Shown piece by piece: positions 1,794 to 64,000 of a stretch of 64,000 bases of DNA (position 1 is the first letter of the stretch; each line of letters begins with the position of its first letter). The DNA is from an uncultured Ignavibacteria bacterium (GTDB lineage Bacteria > Zixibacteria > MSB-5A5 > CAIYYT01). A program made the position numbers and the translations under genes. The stretch spans positions 78,137 through 142,136 of the forward strand of contig CAZQBX010000003.1 of assembly GCA_964592145.1 (NCBI GenBank), read 5' to 3'. Under the pieces are notes generated by a model. It did no database searches, was not told where the DNA came from, and saw nothing but the letters and a program-made list of their open reading frames with translations.

Positions 1794-1810
1794 AATCTAC
1801 TAATGAGGAT

Positions 1811-4441: not shown

Positions 4442-4509
4442 TTCTGGTTTTGGAGTAATCGCACATTAGTTCGAATTTGTTTGGTTTTAGATATAACGGA
4501 GAGATCATC

Positions 4510-9500: not shown

Positions 9501-10156
9501 AGCGGATGATTTTCGCCGTAGACCATCCTTGCCAGCTGCAGCATCAGGTCACCCCAGGGACTTTCAAAGGAACGGACCATCTCGTTGTAAACGGTGCCCT
9601 TCTCTTCAAGCCCGATGACACCGGAAGCCTGGTCGATAGTCAAACCAACGTGGCAGACTTCACGGCGGATTTCTTCATCAGAATAGTTGGGATGAACCAG
9701 CGCGTCGAGTTTCGTTTCGAATAGTTTGAAGAAATTCTCGGTACCGGAACCGCAGTTGAAATGGTAACAGGTCTGGAGTTGCATTGTGAAAGCCGAGCTC
9801 TCGCCGAGCAGCATGTCTTCCATGGATGCGACATAACGACCCTTGGTGCCCTTCCCCAACAAGAGATGTTCGCAGGTATGCGGTTCACCCTGATCGGACG
9901 GCGGGAGGGTATTGAACCACATAAAGGCCTGTGGGAGGGACTGAATCGTGAAGAGATCGGCGACAAATCCGGAGGGAATATGGCGAAAGCGCGCGCCGAT
10001 TGCGGTTCTCGCCTCGTTTTCGTAGATACATTCTGTGCGGAATTGACCGAATTTTTGATCCGGTTTGAGATCGCTGTAGCCAGCGGCAAATGCAGCACTG
10101 GAGAGCAGCAGTATCGTTGCTGTCAATAAAATGGCGGTTAGTTTCCTGTTGTACAT
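6575..10156 (-). CDS. Secreted M16-family (pitrilysin/insulinase-like) zinc metallopeptidase, very large (1193 aa)
   Basis: Signal peptide (MYNRKLTAILLTATILLLSSAAFA); inverted zinc motif HxxEH (HTCEHLLLG) near the N-terminus. Confidence 0.7.
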   Translation of the reverse strand: MYNRKLTAILLTATILLLSSAAFAAGYSDLKPDQKFGQFRTECIYENEARTAIGARFRHIPSGFVADLFTIQSLPQAFMWFNTLPPSDQGEPHTCEHLLLGKGTKGRYVASMEDMLLGESSAFTMQLQTCYHFNCGSGTENFFKLFETKLDALVHPNYSDEEIRREVCHVGLTIDQASGVIGLEEKGTVYNEMVRSFESPWGDLMLQLARMVYGENHPLSYESGGYPPAIRTMTPADLRRFQEGSYHLNNMGAIISIADDISISTCLERLSQILSRIEPDAVMIDDPASLNDRVPAPAAAEPGTIKLVDFPAQLPSDPGLLVYSWPAQFNLGNNDRYLLELLVQNLSGDQTSRLHNRLIDSQTRQIDVGAAGIGSWVSNEKGNPIHIYFDEIKRESCTPKMIDSIRKVILDEIGKIAALPDGSSELQEFNRRALERVTSRERATRTFLNSPPRFGERSSGAQWMTNTQRLHKTGGFRRSLAFADEIAFARQQLGNSKNIWRDYIAAWRLIETPPYAVAAVANPELIGRQEAERQARLDAYIANLKTIYSVSSEDEAIQQFKAEYDAQTAELDSVAATIQMPGFVENPPMTLDDPLKYAVDTIAGKVQVVASKFENITNATVGLAFNLDVVPENELIYISALPTVLTDIGVISDSGKLTFDQMQSRLRSEISGLSAYTSVNYRTQRAELVVRTSGSTQAEGLAALDWLDDVLFDAYLEPENLPRIRDAIDYTLSGLRSTMRGSEESWVEGPADAYWRQDVPLLLATDCFMTKAFNLYRIKWMLKDAGDPNKPDSFVKFMESLAAKGAGLDRKQLSELLATISGDQKFAWSSAIVVELTAKHLIADPRNAGLIQEVARDMQRVLSDIPDASLATDWQFLCWQTARDASMDDNTALAQIRGVLEKLRHTDNVRAFMISSSATKDALMPRLAGIIGKLDPKPSVRQQYSTEPLVTNRLRERASDTGTPVYVGLVNENTRSGVFVNTADCARFAEHTPDGLIDFLAARLYGGGGAHSMFMKTWGAGLAYSNGLRSRESTGRIVYYAERCPDLAQTMQFVVGELKRAPHDPALGEYTIAQAFNANRAAMTYEVRGEAIARDLADNIPAQSVAKFRQGILELRKQPDFYDRVQGRMEAVYGLLLPDYGPSGLESVTKYNAVNFVVGPEKQFESYERYLQSVEPGARLYRLYPRDFWMVSK

Positions 10157-20062: not shown

Positions 20063-20070
20063 TTCACGTA

Positions 20071-21513
20071 ATGAAGATCTTAGTTACAGGCGCCACGGGA
20101 TATATCGGCGGACGACTTCTGAAAGCGCTCGAAGCGGGCGGGCATCAAGTGCGATGCCTGGCGCGCAAGCCGGAATACCTGAAATCGAAGGTCGCCCAAA
20201 GAACCGAAATTGTTGAAGGCGACGTCGCCGACAAGGAGTCACTGCAAAAGGCGCTTGTGGGCGTTGATGTCGCATACTACCTCGTGCATTCGATGGCGGC
20301 CGGCGATGAGTTTGCGAGCCGCGATCGACAAGGCGCCGAGAACTTCGCCGTGGTTGCAAAAGAGTGCGGCGTAGGGCGAATCATCTACCTCGGAGGCCTG
20401 GGGAGCGATCGAGAGCTCTCAAAACATCTGTCAAGCCGTCAAGAGGTCGGAGAGTGTTTACGCAGCACCGGCATAACGACAATCGAGTTTCGCGCATCGA
20501 TCATCATCGGTTCGGGAAGTTTGTCTTTCGAGATGATTCGCGCTTTGGTGAGCAAGTTGCCAGTCATGGTTACACCGCGCTGGACAAGAACGCTTTCACA
20601 GCCAATCGCGGTAGAGGACGTAATCGAGTACCTCATCGCCGGACTGGACGTTAAGTGTCGCGAGAGCACCGTCGTTGAATTCGGCGGTGCTGACAAGGTG
20701 TCCTATCTGGATATCATGAAGGAATTCTCCCGCCAGCGAAACCTTAAAAGGATCATCATACCAGTGCCGATTCTCTCGACCTACATTTCGAGTTTATGGC
20801 TGGGCTTTGTTACGCCGGTTTACGCTGGAATCGGCCGGAAGCTGATTGATAGCGTGCGCAATGAGACCGTGGTAACAAACAATCTGGCCGAGAGGATGTT
20901 CACAATCCGTCCACGCGGCATCCGCCAGGCTGTGGAGCGTGCACTGAAGTATGAAGACCAGAGTTTTGCGCAGACGCGCTGGAGTGACGCGCTGTCCTCG
21001 ATACCCGCCCGCCGACCCTGGGGCGGAATCAAGTTTGGCTCACGGCTCGTCGACTCACGCAGCATCACTGTGCATTGTACTCGCGAAGAGGCTTTTGCTC
21101 CAATCCGCCGCATCGGTGGAAAGACCGGCTGGTACTACGGCAACTGGTTACGGAGACTGCGCGGCCTAATGGACATTCTGGTGCGCGGTGCCGGTCTTCG
21201 TCGCGGCCGCCGCAACCCCGAAGAATTGGTTGTCGGCGATACTGTTGATTTCTGGCGCGTGGAAGCATACGAGCCTGGCCATTTGCTGCGGCTTTCTGCT
21301 GAAATGAAGGTTCCTGGGCGGGCATGGCTGCAATTCGAAGTCAGCGGTGATGGAGACAGTTCAGTCATCAGACAGACAGCGTTGTTCGATCCGGCCGGAG
21401 CATTCGGACTACTCTATTGGTACACGCTCTATCCAATTCACGAATTGGTGTTTAAGGGGATGCTCAATCGAATAGCGCGAAGCGCAAGCCAGCAAGGCAC
21501 CCGCTCCTGTTGA
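20071..21513 (+). CDS. NAD(P)H-binding NmrA/SDR-like protein fused to a DUF2867-like C-terminal domain
   Basis: MKILVTGATGYIGGRLL Rossmann motif; 480 aa two-domain architecture. Confidence 0.7.
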   Translation: MKILVTGATGYIGGRLLKALEAGGHQVRCLARKPEYLKSKVAQRTEIVEGDVADKESLQKALVGVDVAYYLVHSMAAGDEFASRDRQGAENFAVVAKECGVGRIIYLGGLGSDRELSKHLSSRQEVGECLRSTGITTIEFRASIIIGSGSLSFEMIRALVSKLPVMVTPRWTRTLSQPIAVEDVIEYLIAGLDVKCRESTVVEFGGADKVSYLDIMKEFSRQRNLKRIIIPVPILSTYISSLWLGFVTPVYAGIGRKLIDSVRNETVVTNNLAERMFTIRPRGIRQAVERALKYEDQSFAQTRWSDALSSIPARRPWGGIKFGSRLVDSRSITVHCTREEAFAPIRRIGGKTGWYYGNWLRRLRGLMDILVRGAGLRRGRRNPEELVVGDTVDFWRVEAYEPGHLLRLSAEMKVPGRAWLQFEVSGDGDSSVIRQTALFDPAGAFGLLYWYTLYPIHELVFKGMLNRIARSASQQGTRSC

Positions 21514-37062: not shown

Positions 37063-40000
37063 TTGATGAAAGCAAGCACATCCGGAAAATGCCTTGGAAT
37101 CCCCTGGCTAATTGTATTGGCGATCATGACTTTAGTTGGATTAGTCGCCAATCCAGGATTCTCCGCGGATACGGGAGAAGAGCAGACCAAAGTTGACTCC
37201 CTTGAATTTGACAGTCGATTTGCGCTGTATCGATACCTGCAGCGCGGATTCGAAGAGTACTTCGACAAAGGTGATGTGAGCCGTTTAGCGGATTTGGAGC
37301 TTGCTGCCCGATATGTAAGTGAAACGTTTGGCGATGATTTCTATCTTCGGCAATGCGACAAGTTCAAGAACTGGCGGGAAAACTACCTCACAAAGCGTAG
37401 GCAACTGAAGGTCGAATATTCGCTGAATCAGCAAGGGCTGAATCAAGTAGACGTTCCTGCAGACACCTATTGCGATCAGATGATGAAATTGGCCGATGCG
37501 TTCCTTGAACTTGGAGACTCGGCCTCGGCAGTTAACTGTCTGCAAGTAGCCGGCGCAATGGGAGCGGGAAGAACCAGTTCGGATAACATAAGGGGATTGT
37601 TATCGAAATCGCTGGCCATCAGCCGAGCGATTGGCGACCTCGATGGGCTGTCGCGAAGTTATAATCTTACCGGAAGATTCCACGAGCAACGTGCCGAGTT
37701 CATAAAGGCGGGCGCCTATTTCGATTCGGCGCGCGTCATCAAATTCGAGCTTGGCGATCTCGCCGGTAGTGCCGACGCCCTGAACAACATCGCCTCGGTC
37801 TACCTCTCAATTGGCGACAAGGCAAATTCGTTGCGGTTTGCCGAAGAAGCACTGCAACAGAGGCGCGAACTTGGCGATTCAACGCAAGTTCTGCAATCGC
37901 TGTTGATGATAATCCCGGCCTTTGCCCGCGATGTTCCGGATTCGACTGCCCAACAATGGCTCAATGAGGCAGATCGACTTTCGCGCCTGCAATCGGAACC
38001 ACAACCGATGGAGCGACTTGCCTACAGCCGAGGAGTAATAGCCGAGTTGGGCGGCGAACTTGATTCGGCACTTAGTCAGTATTCGCAAGCCCTCGCCATT
38101 GCCACCGGTTCGAAAAATCACCGTCTAGCGCTCGCCATACTTCAGAACCTTGCCGCTCTCGAGTCGTCGATGGGACGTTTTTCGGAGTCTGTAGCTCATT
38201 ACGTTGCGGCACAGGAGCTTGCGACAAACTCCCGCAATAGTGCGGCGCTGGCGACTATCTACCACAATCTTGGCTCTTTGCACCAACGACTGGGTGATCT
38301 CGAGTTGGCGAGCGACTACTACCGCCGTGCTTTGGAAATCCGTCGCCAATTGGATATGAGAATTCAATCTGCAGAGACTTTAGGCAATTTGGCAGAGCTG
38401 TATTTGACGACCGGTGACCCTGCAACAGCGGAGGTGTATATCCGTCAGGCGATACAAGTCGCGCAACTTGCCGGCGATCGACGACGTCTCGCCTCAGCGC
38501 TCACACGATTGGCGCACCTCAGGCAATTAAATAAGGACTACGTCGGAGCAATGGCAGAGCTTGACAGTGCAGAGGCGGTTGAATCGGAATCACAAACTCC
38601 ACAGCGCCGGATCGATTATCTTTGCCTGCGGGCAGAGTTTTCACGCCAGGCACAAGAACTGGCACAGGCTGACAGATATCTCTCGGACGCTTACCGAGTC
38701 CTCGACTCATGTGCAACCTATACCAATCGCCAAAGGGTTGATATCATCAGAGCCGAATTGGCTGCCGACCGTAAGCGCTGGCGGGAGGCATACACCAGTT
38801 TGGCAACGGTCATTGCTCGCTCCGAACAGTTGCGCGGAAGTATTCCCAATCCGCAGCTGCGGACGAGTTTTCAGGGACGGTCGCGTTTTGTTTATGAGCA
38901 CATGGTCAAGACGCTGTTCAATCTTCGAAAGTCCGGCGAGTTTTCCGGAGGGGACGACTCTTTGCTGGCATATACTGAAAAGGCCAAATCGCGAGGTCTG
39001 CTGGACGCCGTGTATGGAATGGACGGACCGAACGATTCGCGGCAATGGGCGCATATGCGGTCGGAAGAGTCAAATCTGCTTCGAGAAGTTGAACGTGTTG
39101 AGCAATCGCTCGCAGACGACGGCGATGCCCAGTCGATCAAGCGCAAGATATCGTTGCTGGCGAATCTCGAAACGCGGTTGACCGACTTGCGGCTCAAGCA
39201 AGGCGCGGCGATTTCAACATCAGCCCGAATCTACAGTCCCCAACCGATTTCGATCCGGAAGATTCAGTCATCTCTACCAGACGAACGCACCGCGTTGATT
39301 TCATTTCTGCTTACACCTGAATCAAGTTACGTCATTCTCCTGGATCGTCGGCGGTTTACCGTTGAAGAGATTCCGGGTCGCAGCGAGATATCCGCCCGAG
39401 TTGCTGAATTTGCACGATTGATCCAGGTCTCGATCAAGGATGAGTCGCTTCTGGACAGCCTGGATGCAATTGCCGAATTGCTGGGCAAACAACTCCTCCC
39501 ACGGGAGTTGTTCGCGCAAGGCAACTACAATCATCTGCTGATTTGTGCAGATGGCATACTAAGCGTTCTTCCATTTGAAGCACTGCGTTTCAACGACAGA
39601 TACTTGATTGAAAGTTCGGCGATCGCTTCTGTGCCCTCGCTGTATCTGTACGGTTCAGGCAGCAGCAATTCGCAGCCACCTAAGGCGACGCGTCTACTTG
39701 CGCTCGCCGATCCACGCAACAACTCACAGTTGAGACAATTGCCGTTCAGCGCCAGAGAGGTTGACTGGATCAGCGAAGCCTTCGGCAAATCAAATTGCAC
39801 GATCCTGACTGCAACACGAGCCACCAAATCCGAATTGTTACGGCTGAATTTGTCTGATTACGGTATTGTCCATGTCGCGACGCATTCGACAATTAACTAC
39901 ACCGATCCACGACGATCCAAGATCTGGCTTTCGGCTGATTCTTCTCTGATTGATGGCGAAAGCATCCTCTCGTTGGCGGAAATCGGTGAACTCGAACTTT

Positions 40001-40302
40001 CGGCAGATCTGGTTGTCTTGTCATCCTGTGAATCCGGAGGCGGAAGTCTTGACATCGGTGAGGGCCTCGACGGCTTTGCCAAAGCATTCTTACAGGCCGG
40101 AGCGGGCAACTTGGTCGTTTCACTCTGGGAAGTCGAGGACTTCACCACAGCGGCATTCATGAAGACTTTTTATAATAACCTCAAGTCCGGATATGCTGAT
40201 GCTCTACGGACGGCAAAGTTGGAAATGATAACTTCGCCACGACTGCGGCACAGGCATCCCTACTACTGGTCACCATTCAAGCTGATTGTCGGTCGCAATT
40301 AG
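37063..40302 (+). CDS. Exported TPR-repeat protein with C-terminal CHAT (caspase-like) protease domain
   Basis: Signal peptide or TM (IPWLIVLAIMTLVGLVA). About 700 aa of TPR-like repeats (NLAALESSMGRFSESVAHYVAAQELA...). CHAT catalytic dyad context (IVHVATHS ... ADLVVLSSCESGGG) and CHAT C-terminal signature PYYWSPFKLIVG. Confidence 0.8.
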   Translation: MMKASTSGKCLGIPWLIVLAIMTLVGLVANPGFSADTGEEQTKVDSLEFDSRFALYRYLQRGFEEYFDKGDVSRLADLELAARYVSETFGDDFYLRQCDKFKNWRENYLTKRRQLKVEYSLNQQGLNQVDVPADTYCDQMMKLADAFLELGDSASAVNCLQVAGAMGAGRTSSDNIRGLLSKSLAISRAIGDLDGLSRSYNLTGRFHEQRAEFIKAGAYFDSARVIKFELGDLAGSADALNNIASVYLSIGDKANSLRFAEEALQQRRELGDSTQVLQSLLMIIPAFARDVPDSTAQQWLNEADRLSRLQSEPQPMERLAYSRGVIAELGGELDSALSQYSQALAIATGSKNHRLALAILQNLAALESSMGRFSESVAHYVAAQELATNSRNSAALATIYHNLGSLHQRLGDLELASDYYRRALEIRRQLDMRIQSAETLGNLAELYLTTGDPATAEVYIRQAIQVAQLAGDRRRLASALTRLAHLRQLNKDYVGAMAELDSAEAVESESQTPQRRIDYLCLRAEFSRQAQELAQADRYLSDAYRVLDSCATYTNRQRVDIIRAELAADRKRWREAYTSLATVIARSEQLRGSIPNPQLRTSFQGRSRFVYEHMVKTLFNLRKSGEFSGGDDSLLAYTEKAKSRGLLDAVYGMDGPNDSRQWAHMRSEESNLLREVERVEQSLADDGDAQSIKRKISLLANLETRLTDLRLKQGAAISTSARIYSPQPISIRKIQSSLPDERTALISFLLTPESSYVILLDRRRFTVEEIPGRSEISARVAEFARLIQVSIKDESLLDSLDAIAELLGKQLLPRELFAQGNYNHLLICADGILSVLPFEALRFNDRYLIESSAIASVPSLYLYGSGSSNSQPPKATRLLALADPRNNSQLRQLPFSAREVDWISEAFGKSNCTILTATRATKSELLRLNLSDYGIVHVATHSTINYTDPRRSKIWLSADSSLIDGESILSLAEIGELELSADLVVLSSCESGGGSLDIGEGLDGFAKAFLQAGAGNLVVSLWEVEDFTTAAFMKTFYNNLKSGYADALRTAKLEMITSPRLRHRHPYYWSPFKLIVGRN

Positions 40303-54475: not shown

Positions 54476-55099
54476 TTGGCAAAAACAGACCCAAGAGTTG
54501 ACGCATATATCTCCAAGTCGGCGGATTTCGCCAAGCCGATTCTGAAGCATCTGCGCCGGCTGGTTCATCAAGCATGCCCGGATGTCCAAGAAACGATGAA
54601 GTGGAGCTTTCCGCATTTCGAGCACAAGGGGGTACTTTGCTTCATGTCAGCATTCAAGCAACATTGTGCTTTCGGGTTCTGGAGATCCAGTGTGTTGTCG
54701 GAAACGGCTGCGAAGGTCAATTCAAGTAATACCAAAGCCATGGGGCAGTTCGGCCGGATCACAAGTTTGGAGGATCTACCGAGTGACCGGCAAATGCTGT
54801 CACTAATCAAGCAGGCAGTCAAGTTCAATGAATCGGGTTTAAAGGCGAACCGGCGTGTCGTCAAGTCGGCATCCAAGCCGGTCAAAGTGCCTGACTATTT
54901 TGTCGCGGCATTACGGCGAGACAAGAAGGCATTGACGGTGTTTCAAAATTTCAGTCCAAGTCACAAGCGGGAATACATTGAGTGGGTGACCGGGGCAAAA
55001 AGCGACGAGACGAGGGAACGGCGTTTAGCTCAGGCAATTGAGTGGATGGCGGAAGGCAAGTCGCGAAACTGGAAATACACTCGACGCAAAGCGACTTGA
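54476..55099 (+). CDS. DUF1801 (YdhG-like) plus YdeI/OmpD-associated C-terminal domain protein
   Basis: DPRVDAYISKSADFAKPILKHLRRLVHQACPDVQETMKWSFPHF (DUF1801); C-terminal PDYFVAALRRDKKALTVFQNFSPSHKREYIEWV. Start moved to TTG 54476 after an AGGTGG RBS, because the 54443 TTG lies inside the upstream gene. Confidence 0.55.
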   Translation: MAKTDPRVDAYISKSADFAKPILKHLRRLVHQACPDVQETMKWSFPHFEHKGVLCFMSAFKQHCAFGFWRSSVLSETAAKVNSSNTKAMGQFGRITSLEDLPSDRQMLSLIKQAVKFNESGLKANRRVVKSASKPVKVPDYFVAALRRDKKALTVFQNFSPSHKREYIEWVTGAKSDETRERRLAQAIEWMAEGKSRNWKYTRRKAT

Positions 55100-55118
55100 G
55101 GACCAATAAGTCCGTAGC

Positions 55119-56321
55119 CTAAACCAGATGCTTGCCGCCGTCGAAGTAACCCTTGACGGCGCTGCGATTGGCCTGCAACCACGCGGGATCCCACTTTACA
55201 ATACCGAACGCTTCCGACATGAACTCTTCGCGCGCCCCGCGGATCTTATCATCATCTTTAGCGGCTTCAGCCTTGGTCCTTTCATCCCGCGAATATGGAG
55301 TGACGGTAGCCTGACCTTTTGATGCTGTCTTGAATTCCTTCATCATCTTCGTTTCCTTGATGTCGGTGAAAGCCTTGTTCGTCTTCTGCGCAGCATCCAT
55401 TTTCGATTCGAGATCCTTGACGTCAGCTTTGAATTTCGTCTTATCCGTTGCCGAGAGGCCGGCTTCGGTCGTGGTGAAGCTGAATGAACCGTCGGCATTT
55501 GTGGTCTCCGAATAATTGTTCGGGAACGTACTGCGCAGATGCGCGCGCTGGGCATCGATATCACGCTGCGCCTGTTGATCTTTCTGTTCAAGTTGCCGCA
55601 CTTCGAGAAAGGCGAGTACGTGGGCGGCCTCGTGAAAGATGACGTGGCTGCAGTTCGGCAGCAGTTTTGCAGGATCGGGACCGAGACACAAAAGTGCGCC
55701 ATTGACCATGCCCTCGTTGAAAACCTCGACGGTATGGGCCGACTGATCGTAATGCCCGCCGACATCATTGCCGGTTCCAGTGGTGCCGCGGGACACTTTC
55801 AGGTCTTTCATCCGCTCGAGTTCTTTATCAGTCAGAACATTAAGAGACATTTTGACGGCGGACGCCTCGTCTCCGCTGAAGCCGTTGACAGAGATGTTGA
55901 AGCCGTTGAGGCGCTTGTCGATTGCCGTGATGGCGGCACTGTCGGGAAGGCTGTTCGTCGGTGCGCCGACCTTGATCAGGTCGATTTCATTATTCGCCTT
56001 GAGAACGCCGGTACAGATGAAGGTGGTCAGAGTAGGACTGCCTTTACCACCTGTAGCGGGAGTCTCGATGATAATGTGGAAGGTTCGGCGCAGGTTGACC
56101 GGTTTGTCAGTCGGTTTCGAGAAGCAGAATTTTGCCAGAAGCTTCTCTTTGTCAGTGAAGCTTGTTCCGATGAAGTTGACTTTGGCGCCGAAGGTCACAT
56201 CGCTGGGTAAGGAACTTTCCTCTACCTTGCCGGAACTGATCACCGAGGTAGCGACCATCGGAGGATCGACCGTGACTTTTGTGTTTGATCCTGATTTGCC
56301 TTGTCCGTCTTCGCCAGCCAT
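55119..56321 (-). CDS. Hypothetical protein with HExxH zinc-metallopeptidase motif (HEAAH); possibly a DUF4157-like toxin-associated peptidase domain
   Basis: NCSHVIFHEAAHVLAF preceded by HTVEVFNEGMVNG; Lys/Glu-rich C-terminal half; last gene of the PAAR-led co-directional cluster. Confidence 0.4.
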   Translation of the reverse strand: MAGEDGQGKSGSNTKVTVDPPMVATSVISSGKVEESSLPSDVTFGAKVNFIGTSFTDKEKLLAKFCFSKPTDKPVNLRRTFHIIIETPATGGKGSPTLTTFICTGVLKANNEIDLIKVGAPTNSLPDSAAITAIDKRLNGFNISVNGFSGDEASAVKMSLNVLTDKELERMKDLKVSRGTTGTGNDVGGHYDQSAHTVEVFNEGMVNGALLCLGPDPAKLLPNCSHVIFHEAAHVLAFLEVRQLEQKDQQAQRDIDAQRAHLRSTFPNNYSETTNADGSFSFTTTEAGLSATDKTKFKADVKDLESKMDAAQKTNKAFTDIKETKMMKEFKTASKGQATVTPYSRDERTKAEAAKDDDKIRGAREEFMSEAFGIVKWDPAWLQANRSAVKGYFDGGKHLV

Positions 56322-56347
56322 CTATCTTCCTTGAGATTGGTGAGTCG

Positions 56348-57220
56348 TCATTCTTCCAGAATCGTTAGCTTGTATGGCCCGGGCGGCATGTCGTCGAAGT
56401 GCGCACGCCCTTCATCGTCAAGTGTTCCGTTTTCGCTGGCGCCATTGGGAAGATCGATCTTGAATCTGCGGTTGCTTAGCGGTGTTCCGTCGTTAAAAGT
56501 CACGAGCAGGTCAATATGATCTTTGAATTTGAGGAGCCCTGACTCTTGTTTTTTGCCGATTTCTGTTTCGCCGATCTTTACCGTGAAGAAGTATTCTGGG
56601 AAACGATAAGCACCGCCGAACTTGGACATATCTTCATCGGTCGCAATATCGTCGGTGTCTTCGCTGTATTGGTATTCCCAGAGGATGTCGATCTTTTCGG
56701 ATTTGACGCGGACCGGAATCTCGACGATTCTGTCGTGAGCGCCATCGGCATCAAATTCGTAGATCGTGATCAGGGCGTCGGTATCATCGATAGCATTGCG
56801 AATATCTGCTTTGATGTTCACGAAGTCGCCGCGACGGGCCACGTCGCTGCCCCACTGCAAACCGGAGACTTTGATTTCCGGCATTACCATGATCTTGAAT
56901 GAGTCGCCTTTGAGTCCGTGCTTCGGCAAGCTTGCTTCGAAGTAGATCATCTCGTCGGTTTTGGCAGAAGCCGGAATGTTCACTGTCCCGCGGAACTTAT
57001 TTCTAATGATCAGTCCTTCTGACTTGCCGAGCGTTTTGCCCTGGTCTGACTTGGCGGTAATCTTCACAGGCGCGCCGTCGCCGACGCAAAGCGTGCCGAC
57101 CTCAAGACCAGCCTGCATACCGGCATAAGCGATCTGCTGTGTCCATTCGGCATATATAAATGCTGACTCGAGCTTGATCTGGTGTTTTTGATCCGATGAC
57201 TTTGAGAATTTCAAATCCAT
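56348..57220 (-). CDS. Hypothetical protein (beta-rich, acidic)
   Basis: No motif recognised; co-transcribed position inside the PAAR cluster. Confidence 0.4.
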   Translation of the reverse strand: MDLKFSKSSDQKHQIKLESAFIYAEWTQQIAYAGMQAGLEVGTLCVGDGAPVKITAKSDQGKTLGKSEGLIIRNKFRGTVNIPASAKTDEMIYFEASLPKHGLKGDSFKIMVMPEIKVSGLQWGSDVARRGDFVNIKADIRNAIDDTDALITIYEFDADGAHDRIVEIPVRVKSEKIDILWEYQYSEDTDDIATDEDMSKFGGAYRFPEYFFTVKIGETEIGKKQESGLLKFKDHIDLLVTFNDGTPLSNRRFKIDLPNGASENGTLDDEGRAHFDDMPPGPYKLTILEE

Positions 57221-57233
57221 ATTTCGTGCCCGG

Positions 57234-57662
57234 CTACTTGCCGATCAACAGCGATTCCAGCGCCTGATTGAATGCCGCCTGACTTATCGCTCGTGAGGCG
57301 TGGTCGGAACGGCACTGTAAAGTGTAACCAACGCCATTTTCGATGAAATACGCCAGCCGGCCGTAATTGGCGGCGGCACCGGAGCCACTACGATAAGCAA
57401 ACTCGTAGACTTCACGGCCCGAGCTTAGCTTGCGTGCCTGCTCGAGGAGGACTTCAGAGTCGGTTGAAGAATCGATGATTTGCGCCGATCGCAGTCTCGC
57501 GTATTCCTCGAGCGAAGCAGCATTAGCGGCGGACGGATCAATCGACACTGTAATAATGCTTCTCCGGCCGGCGCGCTCTGGACCGAGGAAACTGAAGATG
57601 GTGCCGTCCTCCCATCCTTCGGGGAGAAGTATCGTCAGCTGATGATTCTTAGTTCTTGCCAT
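57234..57662 (-). CDS. DUF1795-like (Eag-type T6SS effector chaperone-like) protein
   Basis: 142 aa, no signal peptide; N-terminal LTILLPEGWEDGTIFSF...RRSIITVSID pattern resembles the EagT6/DUF1795 signature (LxxPxGWxDxS...SxxIxRD). Confidence 0.4.
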   Translation of the reverse strand: MARTKNHQLTILLPEGWEDGTIFSFLGPERAGRRSIITVSIDPSAANAASLEEYARLRSAQIIDSSTDSEVLLEQARKLSSGREVYEFAYRSGSGAAANYGRLAYFIENGVGYTLQCRSDHASRAISQAAFNQALESLLIGK

Positions 57663-57674
57663 ATTTCTCTATCG

Positions 57675-58901
57675 TTACTCAATGCAGTAAAGAGTGTGTT
57701 TACCGGAGACCAGAATTTTGCCGTTACCAGAGACTGCAGTCGGTGTCGCATAGACATCGCCCTCTTGCGGGCACTTGAATTGCCTGAGAATCTTGCCCGA
57801 GGAAGCAAAGGTTGTGATTGCCGCAGAGTCAGTGACAATTATCTCGCCGGCAGTAGTCGTGTTGAGCCAGCTTCTGCCGCTATATACATGAGGAACGCGC
57901 CACGATTCTGTACCATCAACAAGGCAAGACAGAAAGCCGGAATCCAGGAAGTAGATTTCACCCTTTGCACCACAGGCAGGTTGGTGATGGGTCATCGCTT
58001 GCAGCAAGTTGAATTCCCAATTCACCTGCCCTTCCGGCGAATAAGCTCTTATGAGCGGTCGAGTAACCTCGCCGTCAAGTTTATCGCCGAATAGTACGAG
58101 CTCGTTGTTGGTATTGATCATCGCAGCTCGAACGGTACTCAATTCTGTCGGGAAGTTGCCCGAGTCCTTTCCGTCAGTAATATCATAGACTTGCACGCTA
58201 TCCTGCCCGACCAAGAACAGCTTCTTGTCATCGCTCGTAACCAGTGCCTGAGTAACGACCCCGACACGTTGGTCGATCCAATCCCAAGCGGACTTGCCAA
58301 ACGACATCCGATAGACGGAGGATCCTGCAGGAGTGTTTCTTACGGGCAATCCGCTGAAGTGCTGAATCACTGCCAAGAATTCGTTTCCCAGCGGATAGAG
58401 TAGCCGCAGACGACTGCGATCGTCGAGCAAGGGCACGGCGTGGCCGTCGATGATTAATTTTCCGTCGTATTTTCTGCACGACAATTGCCGGTTTGGCGTG
58501 ATCCAACAATACGAATCGATGCCGAACGCGGCTAGTTCGCCATCGGCGAGCAGCTCCTGCCTGATGAACGTGCCATCGATGTCATAGAGCAGCAGGTCCT
58601 CCTGCAAGACTACTCCGACGAGGTTACCGTCCAAAAGCACTCTTTGCGGTGCCGGCTGCAACAGGGAGTCGACCTTCGAGTAGTGGCGCGCCCAAGCCAA
58701 TTTGCCGCGTGTCGTAGGCGACATAGGAATCAGCCCGTTTGCCTGCAGATTGCCGGACATGATCGTCTGAACAGTTCCACGACTGTCAATGAGTCTTGTC
58801 TCAAGATCAGTTGTCATGCTCGCCTTGGAACAGCCGTTGATGACTAGCCAAAGGAGACAGACTGCAATTCCGGGAAGTCTGTGCATTCTCATAAATCTCA
58901 C
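57675..58901 (-). CDS. Lipoprotein with probable beta-propeller repeats (immunity or accessory candidate)
   Basis: Lipobox LWLVINGCS; repeated GxxxYxxD / KLFLVGQDSVQVYD-like blades. Confidence 0.4.
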   Translation of the reverse strand: MRFMRMHRLPGIAVCLLWLVINGCSKASMTTDLETRLIDSRGTVQTIMSGNLQANGLIPMSPTTRGKLAWARHYSKVDSLLQPAPQRVLLDGNLVGVVLQEDLLLYDIDGTFIRQELLADGELAAFGIDSYCWITPNRQLSCRKYDGKLIIDGHAVPLLDDRSRLRLLYPLGNEFLAVIQHFSGLPVRNTPAGSSVYRMSFGKSAWDWIDQRVGVVTQALVTSDDKKLFLVGQDSVQVYDITDGKDSGNFPTELSTVRAAMINTNNELVLFGDKLDGEVTRPLIRAYSPEGQVNWEFNLLQAMTHHQPACGAKGEIYFLDSGFLSCLVDGTESWRVPHVYSGRSWLNTTTAGEIIVTDSAAITTFASSGKILRQFKCPQEGDVYATPTAVSGNGKILVSGKHTLYCIE

Positions 58902-58919
58902 AATTCTTCATCATGCCTC

Positions 58920-61900
58920 TCAAAAGCTATCTTTGAAATCGAAATTTGTGTTGCCGAGTTCTGATCTCATGAAATCGCGCAGAAATGTCAGATCAGTAAT
59001 CTTGAGACGTTTATCGGCCGGCATCAGGGCGATGGTGGCTTCTGTGGCGCCATCATCCTTGCCAAGGACATAGTTTGCGACCCAGACTTTGGACGTGTCG
59101 TTGCCGACTTCCAAAGACTTACCCGAGCGCTTGGATATTTTGGCATCATCGCGCAGCACGACCCGGATGTCGTAGTGCGTGACGGAAGATGCGATATTTA
59201 TGCGACCGAGCGCGATGATCGAAAACAACGTTCGCTGGAATGCCCGATCACTCTTGCCGGCATCCCCAGTGCGAAGCTTGTCATCCGGTAACAACATAAA
59301 CCCTGTACCGTTCAGGCCGCCAATCTCTTTTACCAAATCGGTAACCCAGGCCTCCCGAAGCGCCTTCGTCCATTTCTTGGACTTGTTGGTCGGATGGTCG
59401 ACGAATTCAAAGCCAAGTTTGAAGTATGCCGAGAGAATTCCGTCAAATGGTTTCGAGGTTCGCACTCCCTTGACCCTGATGAGATGGGCCGTTTCGTCAT
59501 GACCGATCTTATACAAGTTCAGATCGACAGCTCCGGTTGCAAGCGTAAATGGTTCCTTTGTCTTGAACGCGCGATAGATGTCACGGAAATCATCAATGAT
59601 GTGATAGGACAACTCCTTAACTTTCGAGATTCCCGCGTCGGTGAATTTAAAGAAGAACCGAACACGAAACTGCCGTCCGTTCAACACCGGCTTGAGTTTG
59701 TTGTCGTCCTTGGCAGCATCGTTAAGCCAGTTGACGAAATTCCACCAATAGCGCATTCGCGGAAGCGACATTGAATCGTTCATCATTGCGCGGCGCTCTC
59801 CACCGAGAGGCGCTCCGGGAATCGGTTGGCGAAACGCCGTCTGCGGCGACTTGAAATCTTCGCGGCGTTCGATGTATTCGTCGGGTTTACCGCAAGCGTG
59901 TCCGATTTCGTGTCCGACTACCAGATTGCTGGCTTCGACTGAATCGAGCGGATCGGTTTCTTTGCCGCCGCTGTCGGCGCGGGTCGCAAAGTCGCTGCGG
60001 TGCATTTGTGAATCGGTGAAGCCCATGAATGCAACATCGGGATTATTACTGACACTGACAATGCACTTATGTTGTCCGCCGCGGTTAGTCAATTTCGGTT
60101 CGAAGTAAAATACGGGCGAGACTTCCAGTGCCGGAGGATTGTCGGCGTCGAGCGGCTCTATCGTGTAGTCTTTGCGTTCCCAGTGAGTTTTGGCATTGCG
60201 AAATCCCTCCAAGGCGAACTTGCGAATTTCCGCCGCTGTCACCGCTGCTTTGTCGGTCAACTTGGGATCGGGATCAAAATGGGCTTTGAACCGGGCGCTC
60301 CAATAGATTAACAGAAAATGTCGCTCGAGATCGCCGAGCATCGTCCCGCGACGAATGTAGTGCGCTTCAAAATTCCCGGTGTTGAAATCCGCATACGGGA
60401 GCGATTTGGGATCACCCTTCTTGTTTGGTTGGAGAATGATTTCGGAAAAACGGACGTCGCGGTCGTTTAATACCGCGGCTCGTGCACCGATCACATCTTT
60501 TGCGCCCTGATTGCCGCCGGCCGGCAGTTTTGTGCGCTTGTCCCAGATGTCGAAGAAACCTGTGGAAACCTTGCGCGATGGCGCGCCCGGCGAGCTAACT
60601 GTCGCTTCGCCGGTCGCGAAAATCAACAGCCGCGGCTCTTGCGGTGTTTTCATAATCAGGTTTTCCGTGAGTGCTGTTGCCGTGTGATGCAAGAGTTGTG
60701 AATCCGGATCGAAGAGCAGAAGACGATTGTCGACGATGTGGAACAGTGCATAGCGTGAATCCTTGGACAGGGCGATGTCTTTATTACCGGTATCGCGATC
60801 ACCGATGTTCTGCCCGCCATTGGCATCAACCAGGACAATATCGTCAAGAGAGAATGTCAGTGGAAACTGCGAATCGGTAACAGTCGGCCCGAATGGTTTG
60901 ATCTTCTTGCGCTCCTTCATGACGGTTTCATATCGGTCGCCACTGTCCATGCTGCCGTCAAAACGCGTCCAGTAGTTCTTCGATGACCAGCGTTCAGGCA
61001 AGTCATAGAATTGCAAGCGTTCCTTGAGCGGGAGTTTTTCGATCTCGACGCGAGTCATGAAGATGATAGTCCCGCCGGATTTGTTCATTTTGATCCACGA
61101 ATCAGAAGTCTCGAATTCAAAGTGGATTTTCTTGCGCCGGTCGTCGTCGCGAACCTTGACGACATAGTTGCCACCGCTAAAAGATGTGCGAGCCTCGATG
61201 CTCTTGCCACTTTCGTCGAAGGCTTTGATGGTAAGGCCTTCCGGTACCGGGGTGATTGCCTGGGCAATCCGATTGAAGAAGACAAATTTCAGATGATAGC
61301 TGATAGCGAATAGATCAAAGGCATCGACATAGATGCGGTCAAAAAATGTCGTGGCAAAAATCGGAACGACTTCACTGTTCAGTTTCTTGGTGAAGCCGGT
61401 AGTAATGTTGATGTCGGGCAAATCACCGCCGTTGAAGAACAGGATCTCGACGCGACGATTCATTTGCGATTTGAAGTTGTCCTTCTGGCTGGCCTGAATC
61501 GGAAATGACTCGCCACAAGGAAGGATCTTTCGTTCGGTATTCGCGAAGCGCAGCTTGTCGCGTTTGTTGATTTTCGGCGTTCTCTGCGGATTGGGACTCG
61601 AGCAGGTTAAGCGCTTTTCGGGTCCTTTGGGGCCGCTCGACGAGCCGCGTGACAGAAATTCATCGATCTCCTTGTCATATAGATCAAACACCGCAATCCA
61701 GGCGACGATCGGCCATTTGTGTTGTGAGTCATTCTTGACTTTCGCCGCTTGCGAGTCGTCAATGCCGTTCGCCTTGAAGAAGTTGACAGTAGCTTCATGA
61801 GTCTTTGCGGTGTAACTATTGTTGATTTCGCCCGGATCGCAGTTGAACTCGGGACGCTTCTTGTTGTAGTGCGCCATGATCTGCTGATAGTCCTCGATGC

Positions 61901-62354
61901 GGTGCCGCTTGTGAGACAAGTCCGCCCACTCTTCCCGTCGTTGCTCCAGCAGGAACAGGACATTATTGCAGCGTTGCTCCGAGAGAATGAAGTTCATCTC
62001 CAGACCGCCGGAGGTATCGGTGTGGCCGGTAATCAGAACTCCGAGCGTGTGATGCTCTTCGAGGACAATGTGCGTGACGGCAATCGTCTGAAGGCCGCTG
62101 AGTTGGTTCTGCAGTTCCTGGCGATCCTTTTCTTCTTGCGTCATGTCGGGATCGGCAGCGGCATCCTGTGAAGAAGCACCCTTGGGCCCGGAGGGCATCA
62201 CCACGCAGCTGTCGAGATGGAAAAGAACATCTTCCATCTCGACAACCTTGACGAGAGGTCGGCGCAACATTAAATCGGCAGGACTCCCGGTGAATATTTG
62301 GCGGCGCTGCTTAAGTTCGCCGAAGCTCAATTGCTGTGGTTCGTTGATTGCCAT
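58920..62354 (-). CDS. Large (1144 aa) protein with N-terminal OmpA/MotB-like peptidoglycan-binding motif and a HExxH zinc-metallopeptidase motif; putative effector/toxin
   Basis: VLITGHTDTSGGLEMNFILSEQRCNNVLFLL matches the OmpA_C signature (GHTD...N..LSE.R...V); LVVGHEIGHACGKPDEY at about residue 830; no signal peptide; starts 12 nt after the PAAR gene stop. Confidence 0.5.
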   Translation of the reverse strand: MAINEPQQLSFGELKQRRQIFTGSPADLMLRRPLVKVVEMEDVLFHLDSCVVMPSGPKGASSQDAAADPDMTQEEKDRQELQNQLSGLQTIAVTHIVLEEHHTLGVLITGHTDTSGGLEMNFILSEQRCNNVLFLLEQRREEWADLSHKRHRIEDYQQIMAHYNKKRPEFNCDPGEINNSYTAKTHEATVNFFKANGIDDSQAAKVKNDSQHKWPIVAWIAVFDLYDKEIDEFLSRGSSSGPKGPEKRLTCSSPNPQRTPKINKRDKLRFANTERKILPCGESFPIQASQKDNFKSQMNRRVEILFFNGGDLPDINITTGFTKKLNSEVVPIFATTFFDRIYVDAFDLFAISYHLKFVFFNRIAQAITPVPEGLTIKAFDESGKSIEARTSFSGGNYVVKVRDDDRRKKIHFEFETSDSWIKMNKSGGTIIFMTRVEIEKLPLKERLQFYDLPERWSSKNYWTRFDGSMDSGDRYETVMKERKKIKPFGPTVTDSQFPLTFSLDDIVLVDANGGQNIGDRDTGNKDIALSKDSRYALFHIVDNRLLLFDPDSQLLHHTATALTENLIMKTPQEPRLLIFATGEATVSSPGAPSRKVSTGFFDIWDKRTKLPAGGNQGAKDVIGARAAVLNDRDVRFSEIILQPNKKGDPKSLPYADFNTGNFEAHYIRRGTMLGDLERHFLLIYWSARFKAHFDPDPKLTDKAAVTAAEIRKFALEGFRNAKTHWERKDYTIEPLDADNPPALEVSPVFYFEPKLTNRGGQHKCIVSVSNNPDVAFMGFTDSQMHRSDFATRADSGGKETDPLDSVEASNLVVGHEIGHACGKPDEYIERREDFKSPQTAFRQPIPGAPLGGERRAMMNDSMSLPRMRYWWNFVNWLNDAAKDDNKLKPVLNGRQFRVRFFFKFTDAGISKVKELSYHIIDDFRDIYRAFKTKEPFTLATGAVDLNLYKIGHDETAHLIRVKGVRTSKPFDGILSAYFKLGFEFVDHPTNKSKKWTKALREAWVTDLVKEIGGLNGTGFMLLPDDKLRTGDAGKSDRAFQRTLFSIIALGRINIASSVTHYDIRVVLRDDAKISKRSGKSLEVGNDTSKVWVANYVLGKDDGATEATIALMPADKRLKITDLTFLRDFMRSELGNTNFDFKDSF

Positions 62355-62365
62355 GATTGCAGCTC

Positions 62366-63490
62366 TTACTTACCCTGCTCGGGGTCTTCGATCTTGATAA
62401 ACACCACTTCGTGACGCCCGGCGATGATATCGAGAACTTCGGCACACCCATCATCGCCCAACTTGCCTTGGCGAATTTCGCCGTTGCAGAGATGCAGGCG
62501 GAACTCGGAATTCGCAAGCGAGATAGCCTCTTCGGTAGTGAGCTTGATTCGAACGTCATCGGTCACAACGAGAGGACCGGAACGGGCGGTATATTCGTGA
62601 ATATCAATTGTGAAAAAGTAGTACGGGCAGGTGAACCCGCCCTTCTTGGCAACTTCGCGCTGTTCTTCGATGGCGTGGTCGTTGCATTCGGCAATCCAGG
62701 ATTCTGCAACCTCGTTGTTATCGATCGTTATCTCCCAGCGTCGAATCAGGTGCGGTGCGAAACTGCGATCGCGAACAAGTAATTCCATTGTCGCTTTGGT
62801 CCCCGGAGCAAGTCCGGCAGTTTGAACCTGCATTTGTACCTCTTCGCCGATCTTCACTCTCGGTGACGACCAACCTATCTTCGTAATACCAAAGAGCTCA
62901 ATCTCTGTCGTCCCGGCGCTTTCAAGAGAAGCGTGGACTGCACTGCTTGTCTTCCCAGTGATTGTCTGATTGTCCGGAGTGACGGCCTTGTATCCGAGTT
63001 CGCTAATCGGATATCCGGCTTTATCGACGAATGCGGCATGGACGAAGTGGCCTTCAAATTCACTGGTTTGTGGCGATTGCGACCCCGGCTCGTGTTCACC
63101 GACCTCGGTCTCCTCCGCTGAACTGTCGGCACCTTCGGCTTGCGCGCTGCCGGTCGATCCAGACCCACCACCCGCACCGGCGCCGCCGGCACCAATCAAA
63201 ACGGTGGGACATCCGGGCGGGGCTATCGTGTCGGGGGGGCCGGCACAAGTGAGCATATCACCGACACAAGCAGCCGGCTGACCGCCGATGAGCACTGTCG
63301 GCACGCCCGGCGGCATGATTGGCCCGCCGACGTGCGGCGGGGGAGGAGTCCCGGGATTGACCATCGGGCAGACGTGCATATCACCGACTCGGGCGGCCGG
63401 CATACTGCCAATGAGAACCATTGGAAATCCGGCGACGATGCTGCCGCCGTGAACGGTCAAGTCTCCCAATCGAGCTGCCGGTTTTCCCAT
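62366..63490 (-). CDS. PAAR-domain protein with glycine-rich linker and about 240-aa C-terminal extension of unknown function
   Basis: Three PAAR repeats (PAARLGDLTVHGG, PAARVGDMHVCP, PAACVGDMLTCAGP), each followed by VLIGG/VLIGA; GAGGAGAGGGSGSTGS linker; C-terminal domain without recognisable motif. Confidence 0.8.
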   Translation of the reverse strand: MGKPAARLGDLTVHGGSIVAGFPMVLIGSMPAARVGDMHVCPMVNPGTPPPPHVGGPIMPPGVPTVLIGGQPAACVGDMLTCAGPPDTIAPPGCPTVLIGAGGAGAGGGSGSTGSAQAEGADSSAEETEVGEHEPGSQSPQTSEFEGHFVHAAFVDKAGYPISELGYKAVTPDNQTITGKTSSAVHASLESAGTTEIELFGITKIGWSSPRVKIGEEVQMQVQTAGLAPGTKATMELLVRDRSFAPHLIRRWEITIDNNEVAESWIAECNDHAIEEQREVAKKGGFTCPYYFFTIDIHEYTARSGPLVVTDDVRIKLTTEEAISLANSEFRLHLCNGEIRQGKLGDDGCAEVLDIIAGRHEVVFIKIEDPEQGK

Positions 63491-63719
63491 CGATCTCCAG
63501 TACTTTCGACGAATTGCAAAAATGGACTGTTTCAGTATACGCTATTCAAACCCTGGTGTCAACCAAATGGGTTCCACTGCAATAGAACACTGGTCGAGTC
63601 AGCAAGTGCTGGGTTCAAAACGCTTGCTCAGGCGAGCCCTGCGGTGAAGACTCAAAGGCAGCGCGGAACACCAAGTTGGTTGTAATGCAGTTGATAGAAG
63701 CCCTGAACCGACAGATTTG

Positions 63720-63754
63720 GCCAATAGTCCGGAAATCAACTCCGGACTATTGGC
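63720..63754. repeat. Perfect 14-bp inverted repeat GCCAATAGTCCGGA-aatcaac-TCCGGACTATTGGC (hairpin or protein-binding palindrome)
   Basis: Seen directly; lies 18 nt downstream of the stop of the truncated minus-strand gene and 230 nt upstream of the PAAR gene. Confidence 0.5.
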
Positions 63755-63772
63755 TTGTGAGATGGTGATTTG

Positions 63773-64000
63773 TTAGCGGCCGGAGTATCGGTAGGGATAA
63801 TAACGCGGTATCCACATGGCGCCGCGAATCAGTTCAGCAAGTTTTTCGTCAGAAGCCGCCATACCGAGTCCATCTTCACGTGCTTGCTTGGCCACCGCGA
63901 AGGCGACAGTGAATGACTCGTTACGTATGTCGGTCAATGGGGGCAGAAGGCATCCTTTGGATCGCAGGTCTGCGCCTACCATATCGGAAATTGCGCAGGT
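63773..64000 (-). CDS. 3' end of a minus-strand gene whose N-terminus lies beyond the window; function unknown
   Basis: The reading frame stays open to the window edge upstream of M63982; C-terminal sequence ...WIPRYYPYRYSGR; no family recognised. Confidence 0.35.
   Translation of the reverse strand, partial: TCAISDMVGADLRSKGCLLPPLTDIRNESFTVAFAVAKQAREDGLGMAASDEKLAELIRGAMWIPRYYPYRYSGR

Follow-up and report, generated by a model that had tools for sequence, protein, structure and literature searches.

What does a large protein do when its gene directly follows that of a PAAR protein? The case studied here lies in a 64,000-nucleotide stretch of contig CAZQBX010000003.1 from an uncultured Ignavibacteria bacterium, placed by GTDB in Zixibacteria (the whole 64-kb stretch is called the window below), where the second gene of a short operon encodes a protein of 1144 amino acids (aa). 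An earlier note, made from the letters of this DNA, had seen in it an OmpA-like signature and an HExxH motif and had proposed a toxin that degrades peptidoglycan or periplasmic proteins. We put at roughly 60% the probability that the 1144-aa protein is a metallopeptidase effector that acts in the periplasm, is loaded as cargo on the spike of a Bacteroidota-type (T6SS-iii-like) type VI secretion system (T6SS), and has a cognate lipoprotein as its immunity protein. The pattern would be that of a periplasmic effector–immunity pair, because the enzyme is leaderless, a spike-tip gene lies upstream, the exported partner diverges fast, and several copies occur.

The position directly after PAAR is as first described: the ATG lies 11 nt past the stop codon of the PF05488 gene. 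The lack of a signal peptide was borne out as well, since the best 19-residue hydropathy window scored 1.17, no N-terminal hydrophobic segment or transmembrane helix was present, and none of 78 family members (0/78) had an N-terminal export signal or a transmembrane helix. A TagL/TagN-type anchor was ruled out as the principal explanation because the protein has neither a signal nor a transmembrane helix.

The OmpA-like signature near the N-terminus, ITGHTDTSGGLEMNFILSEQRCNNV (residues 108–132, window 61959–62033), belongs to a real domain. On the 1144-aa protein alone, the Pfam OmpA model PF00691 covered residues 95–136 only (E=0.0047; 17.7 bits against a cut-off of 27.2), and the NCBIfam model YiaD matched in part (3.1e-7). 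In contrast to this sub-threshold result, the domain was solid at the level of the family: a profile of 97 homologs matched 44 OmpA-like PDB chains (best 7.4e-5), and among the 120 homologs listed, 39 have a precomputed PF00691 match. The profile also aligned a second piece, CGESFPI...NRRVEI (residues 280–304), to the last strand of the OmpA fold, where it pairs with GESRPI...NRRVEI of the Klebsiella OmpA domain 7rjj. Foldseek, run with the full-length model, gave probabilities of 0.85–0.97 to OprF, A. baumannii OmpA, YiaD and Pal at E values of only 0.09–0.35; the order beta-alpha-beta-alpha-beta-beta is consistent in the model, with an insertion at 140–275. We conclude that the OmpA-like domain is complete but split by this insertion of about 135 residues, a helical subdomain followed by a disordered linker, and that the split accounts for the weak Pfam score of the single protein. 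The helices (140–235) were modelled with a predicted local distance difference test score (pLDDT) above 90 and have a median identity of 41% to distant homologs; in the linker, pLDDT falls below 50 at 237–260 and gaps make up 44% of the alignment columns. H111, D113, G116, R128, R300 and V302 are the same in all 97 sequences. D113 and R128 of GHTD...LSxxR are, we take it, the counterparts of the diaminopimelate-contacting pair of OmpA-like domains, and the domain is a predicted peptidoglycan binder. About 90% of the family also have cysteines at the positions of residues 317 and 330 (CP...ECP), besides the conserved C172 and C280; the window protein has Ile/Val at 317/330, so the disulfide or metal site of most relatives is missing here.

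The HExxH motif, first placed at about residue 830, is present but begins at residue 815: HEIGHACGKPDEY (residues 815–827, window 59874–59912, minus strand) reads HExxHxxGxxDxY. By an estimate from typical residue frequencies, about 0.03 HExxH motifs are expected by chance in 1144 residues. The motif is not a chance occurrence, since 97 homologs, most of them 28–37% identical, all share H815, E816, H819, D825, Y827, M858 and R866; G822 is at least 90% conserved. The extended motif HEIGHACGKPD (815–825) corresponds to HExxHxxGxxD, predicted here to be the Asp-ligand version of the metzincin signature.

Its structural surroundings point the same way. The AlphaFold2 model of the whole protein has a mean pLDDT of 88.2 and a predicted template modelling score (pTM) of 0.77, and that of residues 690–1144 reaches 94.3 and 0.92. 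By DSSP, the model contains a helix at 707–725, five strands, an active-site helix at 812–820 and a C-terminal helix at 867–880, an order that fits the metzincin catalytic domain (helix A, a five-stranded sheet, and active-site and C-terminal helices). The protease matches found by Foldseek were adamalysins, ADAM10, TACE, fragilysin and astacin (best E=0.017, TM-score 0.35). When a profile of the domain was compared with the PDB, 34 of 35 matches were metzincins (best 0.013), among them serralysins, snapalysin (chains 4hx3 and 1c7k), matrix metalloproteinases and two Bacteroides peptidases. A Pfam scan of a 21-member domain alignment gave weak matches to Reprolysin_2-5, M6, M64, M66 and M10, Reprolysin_5 being matched in 4 of the 21 members, with its best value (2.6e-4) in one. 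Pfam and NCBIfam assigned no peptidase family to the single 1144-aa protein, apart from a 19-residue M6 match at E=0.14; Foldseek returned no PDB match at E<=0.001 for either the full or the C-terminal model; and a viral library gave nothing useful. Among proteases, every search recovered members of the metzincins or the MA clan, always weakly. Of the two folds that had been suggested for the motif, metzincin and gluzincin, Foldseek and profiles thus recovered only metzincin-type proteases, each at low significance. The agreement of several weak lines supports the view that the HExxH motif lies in a divergent zincin/metzincin-like catalytic domain.

The roughly 1000 residues that had been left without assignment can in part be divided into the split OmpA-like domain, a beta-rich region and the metzincin-like domain. 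The beta-rich region (339–700), which has a weak match to 3h3l at residues 411–490 and Ig-like and filamin-like matches by Foldseek, probably consists of beta-sandwich domains in the model. The C-terminal domain (896–1144) stays unassigned: it is the least conserved folded part (median identity 22%), and a Foldseek search of the PDB gave no fold match.

The spike module and its loci

The window gene belongs to an operon of six minus-strand genes with intergenic gaps of 11–26 nt (Table 1). Relatives are numerous: an indexed search gave 233 matches, an exhaustive search 885 representatives at E<=1e-30, and the GTDB species set contains 190, all in metagenome-assembled genomes (MAGs). Their hosts are Zixibacteria, bins labelled Ignavibacteria/Bacteroidetes, Fibrobacterota, Chitinispirillaceae, Krumholzibacteriota, Aminicenantes, GN15 and some Desulfobacterota. 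We called and clustered open reading frames (ORFs) in 78 loci. A PAAR gene lies immediately upstream (-1) in at least 65 of the 78, and antisense ORF artefacts hide four more; a lipoprotein partner of about 405 aa follows at +1 in 66, with further cases matched by profile. A DcrB-like protein is found in 51 loci and VgrG, at -2, in 17; about 50 loci have a protein of about 290 aa at +2 to +4. The recurrent module thus comprises a PAAR protein with an extension, the 1144-aa protein, a lipoprotein of about 400 aa, an Eag/DUF1795-like protein and a paralog of the PAAR extension.

Three kinds of locus carry it. Type A loci have the order Hcp-TssE-TssF-TssG-ClpV-VgrG-[module]-variable proteins-DcrB-FHA/SLT-PP2C, and type B loci the order [module]-variable large protein-ClpV (split)-TssB-TssC-Hcp-VgrG-TssE-F-G-K. 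Orphan modules have no T6SS genes within 10 kb, and the window holds one of these; we conclude that it is an orphan 'spike module', with no T6SS core in the window. TssC (PF17541) and Hcp (PF17642) belong to Bacteroidota-type families. All T6SS core matches fell below the NCBIfam cut-offs, and the machines therefore represent a divergent T6SS-iii-like lineage. A 2026 review gives T6SS-iii only for Bacteroidota (PMC13584744). An extracellular contractile injection system or phage-tail origin was ruled out by the presence of ClpV, TssBC, Hcp and TssEFGK in the linked loci. An Rhs-like polymorphic carrier with a variable toxin end was ruled out too, because the family is colinear to the C-terminus; the C-terminal half is exchanged, for a metallophosphoesterase, only in distant relatives.

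These loci bear on the idea that the protein is a cytoplasmic or T6SS-independent enzyme, with PAAR adjacency a matter of co-regulation and another ligand bound by the OmpA-like domain. No T6SS core could be reached from the window or from its sister module, and the leaderless N-terminal module also occurs, joined to a phosphoesterase, in unrelated neighbourhoods without PAAR, as such an enzyme might. T6SS cargo effectors, however, are often encoded away from the machine. The strict gene order, the tight spacing across all six genes, the frequency of PAAR at -1 and the embedding of the module in T6SS clusters speak against independence, as does the export of the partner, and we regard it as very improbable.

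In a second alternative, the 1144-aa protein would be no toxin but would belong to the T6SS-iii-like machine itself, as a conserved accessory or structural component with the lipoprotein as its envelope partner. It could be a spike-mounted wall opener or anchor resembling phage tail lysins, or it could remodel or grip the producer's own peptidoglycan and thereby allow the apparatus to be assembled. All three Zixibacteria T6SS loci reached via TssC (3/3) carry the module, which stands at a constant place in about 40 loci linked to T6SS, and members of the core family are colinear from end to end and uniform in size, with no swappable toxin end. T6SS membrane complexes, moreover, require OmpA-type peptidoglycan anchoring, provided by TagL or evolved TssL (PMC13584744), and TssJ, TssL and TssM could not be recognised in the visible stretches of the Zixibacteria T6SS loci. 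Yet a protein that lacks a signal and a transmembrane helix in 78 of 78 members could not use Sec or Tat to enter the periplasm of the producer, and every known peptidoglycan-binding accessory factor is membrane-anchored (PMC13584744). At least six genomes (79 loci fetched), including the closest relatives of the window genome (L006 with L032, L008 with L034), hold two divergent copies of about 34% identity. Several divergent copies per genome are typical of effector modules; such copies, and orphan loci that each have a PAAR gene and a partner of their own, are unexpected for a structural subunit. We hold an accessory role to be unlikely, though it is the main rival to the effector reading.

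Three features of the machines themselves were noted. ClpV in Zixibacteria T6SS loci is consistently split into two adjacent ORFs (L090 6951–9514; L091 6953–9516; L003 ~18500–21100), one of about 487 aa with Clp_N and the first AAA domain and one of about 365 aa with the second AAA and ClpB D2-small. Type A loci end with FHA + SLT lytic transglycosylase fusions of about 495 aa (L002 20768–22255, with equivalents in 12 loci), behind which a PP2C phosphatase and a Ser/Thr kinase are encoded. After TssK, the Zixibacteria clusters encode conserved proteins of about 307 aa and about 480–737 aa (L085 18176–21315; L090 18272–20666; L091 18323–21428) that match no family save for weak or faint DO-GTPase2 hits; they are candidate membrane-complex components.

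The lipoprotein partner and the proposed action

The 408-aa partner has a lipoprotein signal with a lipobox, its homologs give faint PQQ_2 matches, and the protein is predicted from its sequence to be a beta-propeller-like lipoprotein. A hydrophobic N-terminus was present in 58 of 70 partners, compared with 0 of 78 effectors. The partner is also the fastest-diverging protein of the module, with a median identity of 24%, against 30% for the effector and 35–43% for the other module proteins.

Natural variants from an exhaustive search of the family revealed which part of the effector the partner accompanies. In P0296, P0309 and P0313, leaderless proteins of about 1400–1530 aa outside PAAR/T6SS contexts, the leaderless N-terminal module is kept (profile positions 3–493) and a calcineurin-like phosphoesterase replaces the peptidase half; neither PAAR nor the ~405-aa partner is present in their loci. 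In P0308 and P0332, the beta-rich and metzincin half is retained and PG_binding_1/3 modules have been added, with an N-terminal LysM-like motif in P0308 that was recognised by eye and has no Pfam support. In both, a partner of about 370–408 aa directly follows; the g405 partner profile recognises that of P0332 at 3.9e-21, and a profile was required, since BLASTP between the 408-aa window partner and the partner of the distant variant was not significant. Because the metzincin variants keep the partner and the phosphoesterase variants lose it, the partner travels with the peptidase half. An uncalled DcrB/Eag-like ORF was found behind P0296 (E=2.7e-13; L086 10001–14272 and 14196–14771), and it may be the N-terminal module that the Eag-like protein accompanies. 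In a further variant, P0343 (2025 aa), the beta-rich and metzincin half is combined with CarboxypepD_reg, TIG and CBM5/12 domains, which suggests a further use of the catalytic module in another setting, possibly outside the cell.

The tie to the peptidase half and the fast divergence fit an immunity protein, and an exported partner tied to that half fits action in the periplasm. We infer that the 408-aa lipoprotein is a candidate immunity protein or peptidase inhibitor. A partner that follows the peptidase half and diverges fastest, as an inhibitor would, also counts against the accessory role considered above.

Under the effector reading, the PAAR extension would dock the 1144-aa protein on the VgrG–PAAR tip, where the Eag-like protein and the 290-aa paralog may help, and firing would deliver it into the periplasm of a neighbouring diderm cell. 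The OmpA-like domain would then retain it on the sacculus, and the zinc peptidase, with H815, H819 and D825 as putative ligands and E816 as base, would cleave a substrate at or near the wall. In the producer's own periplasm the lipoprotein would inhibit the peptidase, so that sister cells would be protected.

The repeated recruitment of unrelated peptidoglycan-binding modules argues for a substrate at the wall, most likely a peptidoglycan-associated or lipid-anchored envelope protein. These modules would also suit a T6SS effector whose zinc enzyme hydrolyses peptidoglycan stems or cross-links: up to four unrelated kinds of binding module are found in the family (OmpA-like, PG_binding_1, PG_binding_3 and the motif resembling LysM), and D113 and R128 are invariant. 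HExxH zincins, however, normally cut ordinary peptide bonds, and the peptidoglycan metallopeptidases known to us are of the LAS/M23/M15 type, not HExxH zincins. Pfam, Foldseek and profile searches showed no similarity to any peptidoglycan hydrolase. VgrG2b, an HExxH protein and the only T6SS metallopeptidase toxin to have been characterised, showed no peptidoglycan hydrolase activity (PMC6899460). Given the bond preference of HExxH zincins and the behaviour of VgrG2b, stem peptides are a less likely substrate, and we consider peptidoglycan hydrolysis quite improbable. Of the toxin proposed in the earlier note, the linkage to PAAR as cargo, the OmpA-like domain, the zincin-type setting of the HExxH motif and the localisation to the wall are supported; cleavage of peptidoglycan is not.

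Several observations weigh against the effector reading itself. No metzincin match is individually significant (Foldseek 0.017, PDB profile 0.013, Pfam 2.6e-4), and secretion, toxicity and immunity are all inferred. A beta-propeller of about 400 aa is large for an immunity protein, and a core family of uniform size, colinear throughout, is unusual for a toxin. The phosphoesterase variants are not adjacent to PAAR, so the N-terminal module is not strictly bound to T6SS. A Pfam/ORF survey of the window found no secretion-machine genes other than the operon, and no T6SS core lies beside the second module of the same genome (L032). Finally, the main T6SS loci of the lineage carry the module as a constant element, which would fit a machine accessory. 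Along the same line, there could be an uncharacterised branch of T6SS-iii-like machines, with members among the MAGs of Zixibacteria, Fibrobacterota, Krumholzibacteriota, Ignavibacteria-like bacteria and some Desulfobacterota, in which the protein and its lipoprotein make up a spike component that is present across the lineage and close to obligatory. Rather than serving as an ordinary toxin and antidote, the two would grip peptidoglycan and open the envelope by proteolysis, much like the tail lysins of phages. This is a speculative and rather unlikely idea. If true, the component could compensate for a membrane complex without recognisable TssJLM, and the OmpA module, also found fused to a phosphoesterase, would be a new domain for T6SS loading and peptidoglycan anchoring.

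Other genes of the operon and the window

The operon probably starts at the sigma-70-like promoter listed in Table 1. This site has 11 of 12 consensus matches and is the sole near-consensus site in 54900–64000; the total of promoter-like sites in that interval is not above that of shuffled sequence, and the assignment is suggestive only.

Table 1. Features of the spike-module operon (window coordinates; all on the minus strand)
Feature	Length or residues	Coordinates	Remarks
Sigma-70-like promoter, TTGACA-17-TATACT		63534–63562	~45 bp upstream of PAAR start
PAAR gene	374 aa	62366–63490	PF05488 E=7.5e-22; ~270-aa C-terminal extension
Gene of the 1144-aa protein ('BIG')	1144 aa	58920–62354	ORF call
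OmpA-like domain, part 1	34–139	61938–62255	VLFHLDS...MP strand, helix, GHTD strand, LSxxR helix
Helical insertion in OmpA-like domain	140–236	61647–61937	conserved
Linker	237–275	61530–61646	poorly conserved; low confidence
OmpA-like domain, part 2	276–310	61425–61529	CGESFP...NRRVEILFF
Beta-rich middle region	339–700	60255–61340	DSSP on model
Metzincin-like zinc metallopeptidase domain (predicted)	701–895	59670–60254	
Met858	858	59781–59783	invariant; candidate Met-turn
C-terminal alpha/beta domain	896–1144	58923–59669	pLDDT >90
Lipoprotein gene	408 aa	57675–58901	lipobox LVINGC; signal ...LLWLVINGC
DcrB/DUF1795 (Eag-like) gene	142 aa	57234–57662	PF08786 E=2.8e-4
Gene of PAAR-less paralog of PAAR C-terminal extension	290 aa	56348–57220	prealbumin-like C-terminus
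HEAAH-motif protein gene	400 aa	55119–56321	variable slot of module

The PAAR protein is predicted to be both spike tip and cargo-docking protein. Its residues 202–366 are homologous to the 290-aa protein (BLASTP 1e-10), and the two families cluster together; the pair recurs in about 50 loci. The 290-aa protein, with a CarboxypepD_reg match (E=0.0038) and its prealbumin-like end, may serve as adaptor to the variable effector encoded downstream. The 142-aa protein is a candidate cytoplasmic chaperone or adaptor: its homologs match PF08786 in full, and a signal was found in 0 of 51. The last gene encodes the 400-aa protein, which has its HEAAH motif at residue 230, matches no Pfam or NCBIfam family, and is possibly another effector, of the zincin type; no gene behind it is a candidate for immunity. 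In other loci this slot holds unrelated proteins of 200–1070 aa, one with a weak Peptidase_M91 match, and they are probably additional polymorphic effectors.

The rest of the window encodes cytochromes, oxidoreductases, regulators and housekeeping-type peptidases. Two large multihaem cytochrome c proteins (890 and 670 aa; 1769–6489, plus strand) both have a cytochrome b561-like (Ni_hydr_CYTB) membrane-domain match in the C-terminal part, one also has an MtrC/MtrF-like domain, and the pair may take part in extracellular electron transfer. A 1193-aa ORF (6575–10156, minus strand) has no Pfam match at E<=1e-5. A 1079-aa TPR-CHAT protein (37063–40302, plus strand; CHAT E=2e-62) has behind it, on the opposite strand, a gene for a protein with a weak, below-cut-off match to zf-HC2 (putative zinc-finger).

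Comparison with known systems

If correct, the effector reading describes a large candidate family of T6SS effectors and immunity proteins, with its 885 representatives spread over several uncultivated phyla, in lineages whose secretion systems have so far gone unstudied. It would also illustrate a design principle, in which a leaderless enzyme is held at the target wall by an OmpA-type anchor and the peptidase with its partner can be separated from that anchor. The fixed place in the loci makes the module an annotation marker for T6SS-iii-like systems outside Bacteroidota. T6SS metallopeptidase toxins lack a defined substrate, and a second, unrelated family with a peptidoglycan anchor narrows the search. 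If inhibition is borne out, the beta-propeller lipoprotein would add a new class to the metzincin inhibitors.

Searches of the literature found no description of the family, of T6SS in Zixibacteria or Ignavibacteria, or of a metzincin-type T6SS effector, in agreement with the earlier view that the combination of OmpA and HExxH had not been described.

The closest functional parallel is that of the Tpe–Tpi pairs, VgrG2b C-ter/PA0261 of P. aeruginosa and Tpe1/Tpi1 of A. baylyi, which are periplasmic metallopeptidase effectors with immunity proteins that are exposed to the periplasm and in some cases are lipoproteins (PMC6899460). Like Tpe, the 1144-aa protein is a spike-associated HExxH zinc metallopeptidase by prediction, and it is proposed to act where Tpe does, in the periplasm of the target. 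Unlike Tpe, it is a separate cargo and not an extension of VgrG, it has an added OmpA-like domain and the motif HExxHxxGxxD with a Met, its partner is a beta-propeller lipoprotein of about 400 aa, and its host system is T6SS-iii-like, in the FCB group and other uncultivated phyla. VgrG2b, whose C-terminal structure is presumably deposited in the PDB, was not matched in sequence, profile or Foldseek searches against the PDB. The 1144-aa protein is thus functionally Tpe-like, as far as its sequence predicts, but not detectably homologous, so it is not a Tpe member.

VgrG-3 of V. cholerae, whose immunity protein is the periplasmic TsiV3, is encoded in the main cluster, is conserved among strains, and is a glycoside hydrolase with a peptidoglycan-binding module fused to VgrG. 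It likewise brings a peptidoglycan-binding module and a hydrolase to the spike, and it provides a precedent for conserved peptidoglycan-directed effectors in main clusters. VgrG-3 differs in being a glycoside hydrolase with a PG_binding_1-type module, whereas the window encodes a predicted zinc peptidase cargo with an OmpA-like module.

Among T6SS-locus genes, those of TagL, TagN, TagP and evolved TssL share with the 1144-aa protein an OmpA/MotB domain of the PF00691 type (PMC13584744). Those proteins, however, are membrane-anchored and non-catalytic and act in the producer, whereas the 1144-aa protein has no signal or transmembrane helix and carries the peptidase. Snapalysin (M7) has the same HExxHxxGxxD motif and a conserved downstream Met (PMC3890501), but it is a secreted protein of about 130 aa with the Met about 10 residues past the Asp; here the Met lies 33 residues downstream, in a domain of about 200 aa within 1144 aa, and by Foldseek the 701–895 domain is closest to adamalysins. 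A phage-derived metzincin of Listeria likewise is reported to stand beside a candidate lipoprotein inhibitor, which is TIMP-like, and to be concerned with envelope integrity (PMC8235301). The Listeria pair differs in its Gram-positive host, its Sec-secreted protease and its unrelated inhibitor fold. The leaderless PF08786 protein near PAAR resembles the Eag (DUF1795) chaperones that serve prePAAR effectors. What these chaperones are known to shield is N-terminal transmembrane helices (PMC7773334), and such helices are absent here from both the PAAR protein and the 1144-aa protein.

Being leaderless and catalytic, the 1144-aa protein differs from every described peptidoglycan-binding T6SS protein. 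The kind of system to which it would belong, that of T6SS effector–immunity pairs acting in the periplasm, is known already; a description of the family itself was not found.

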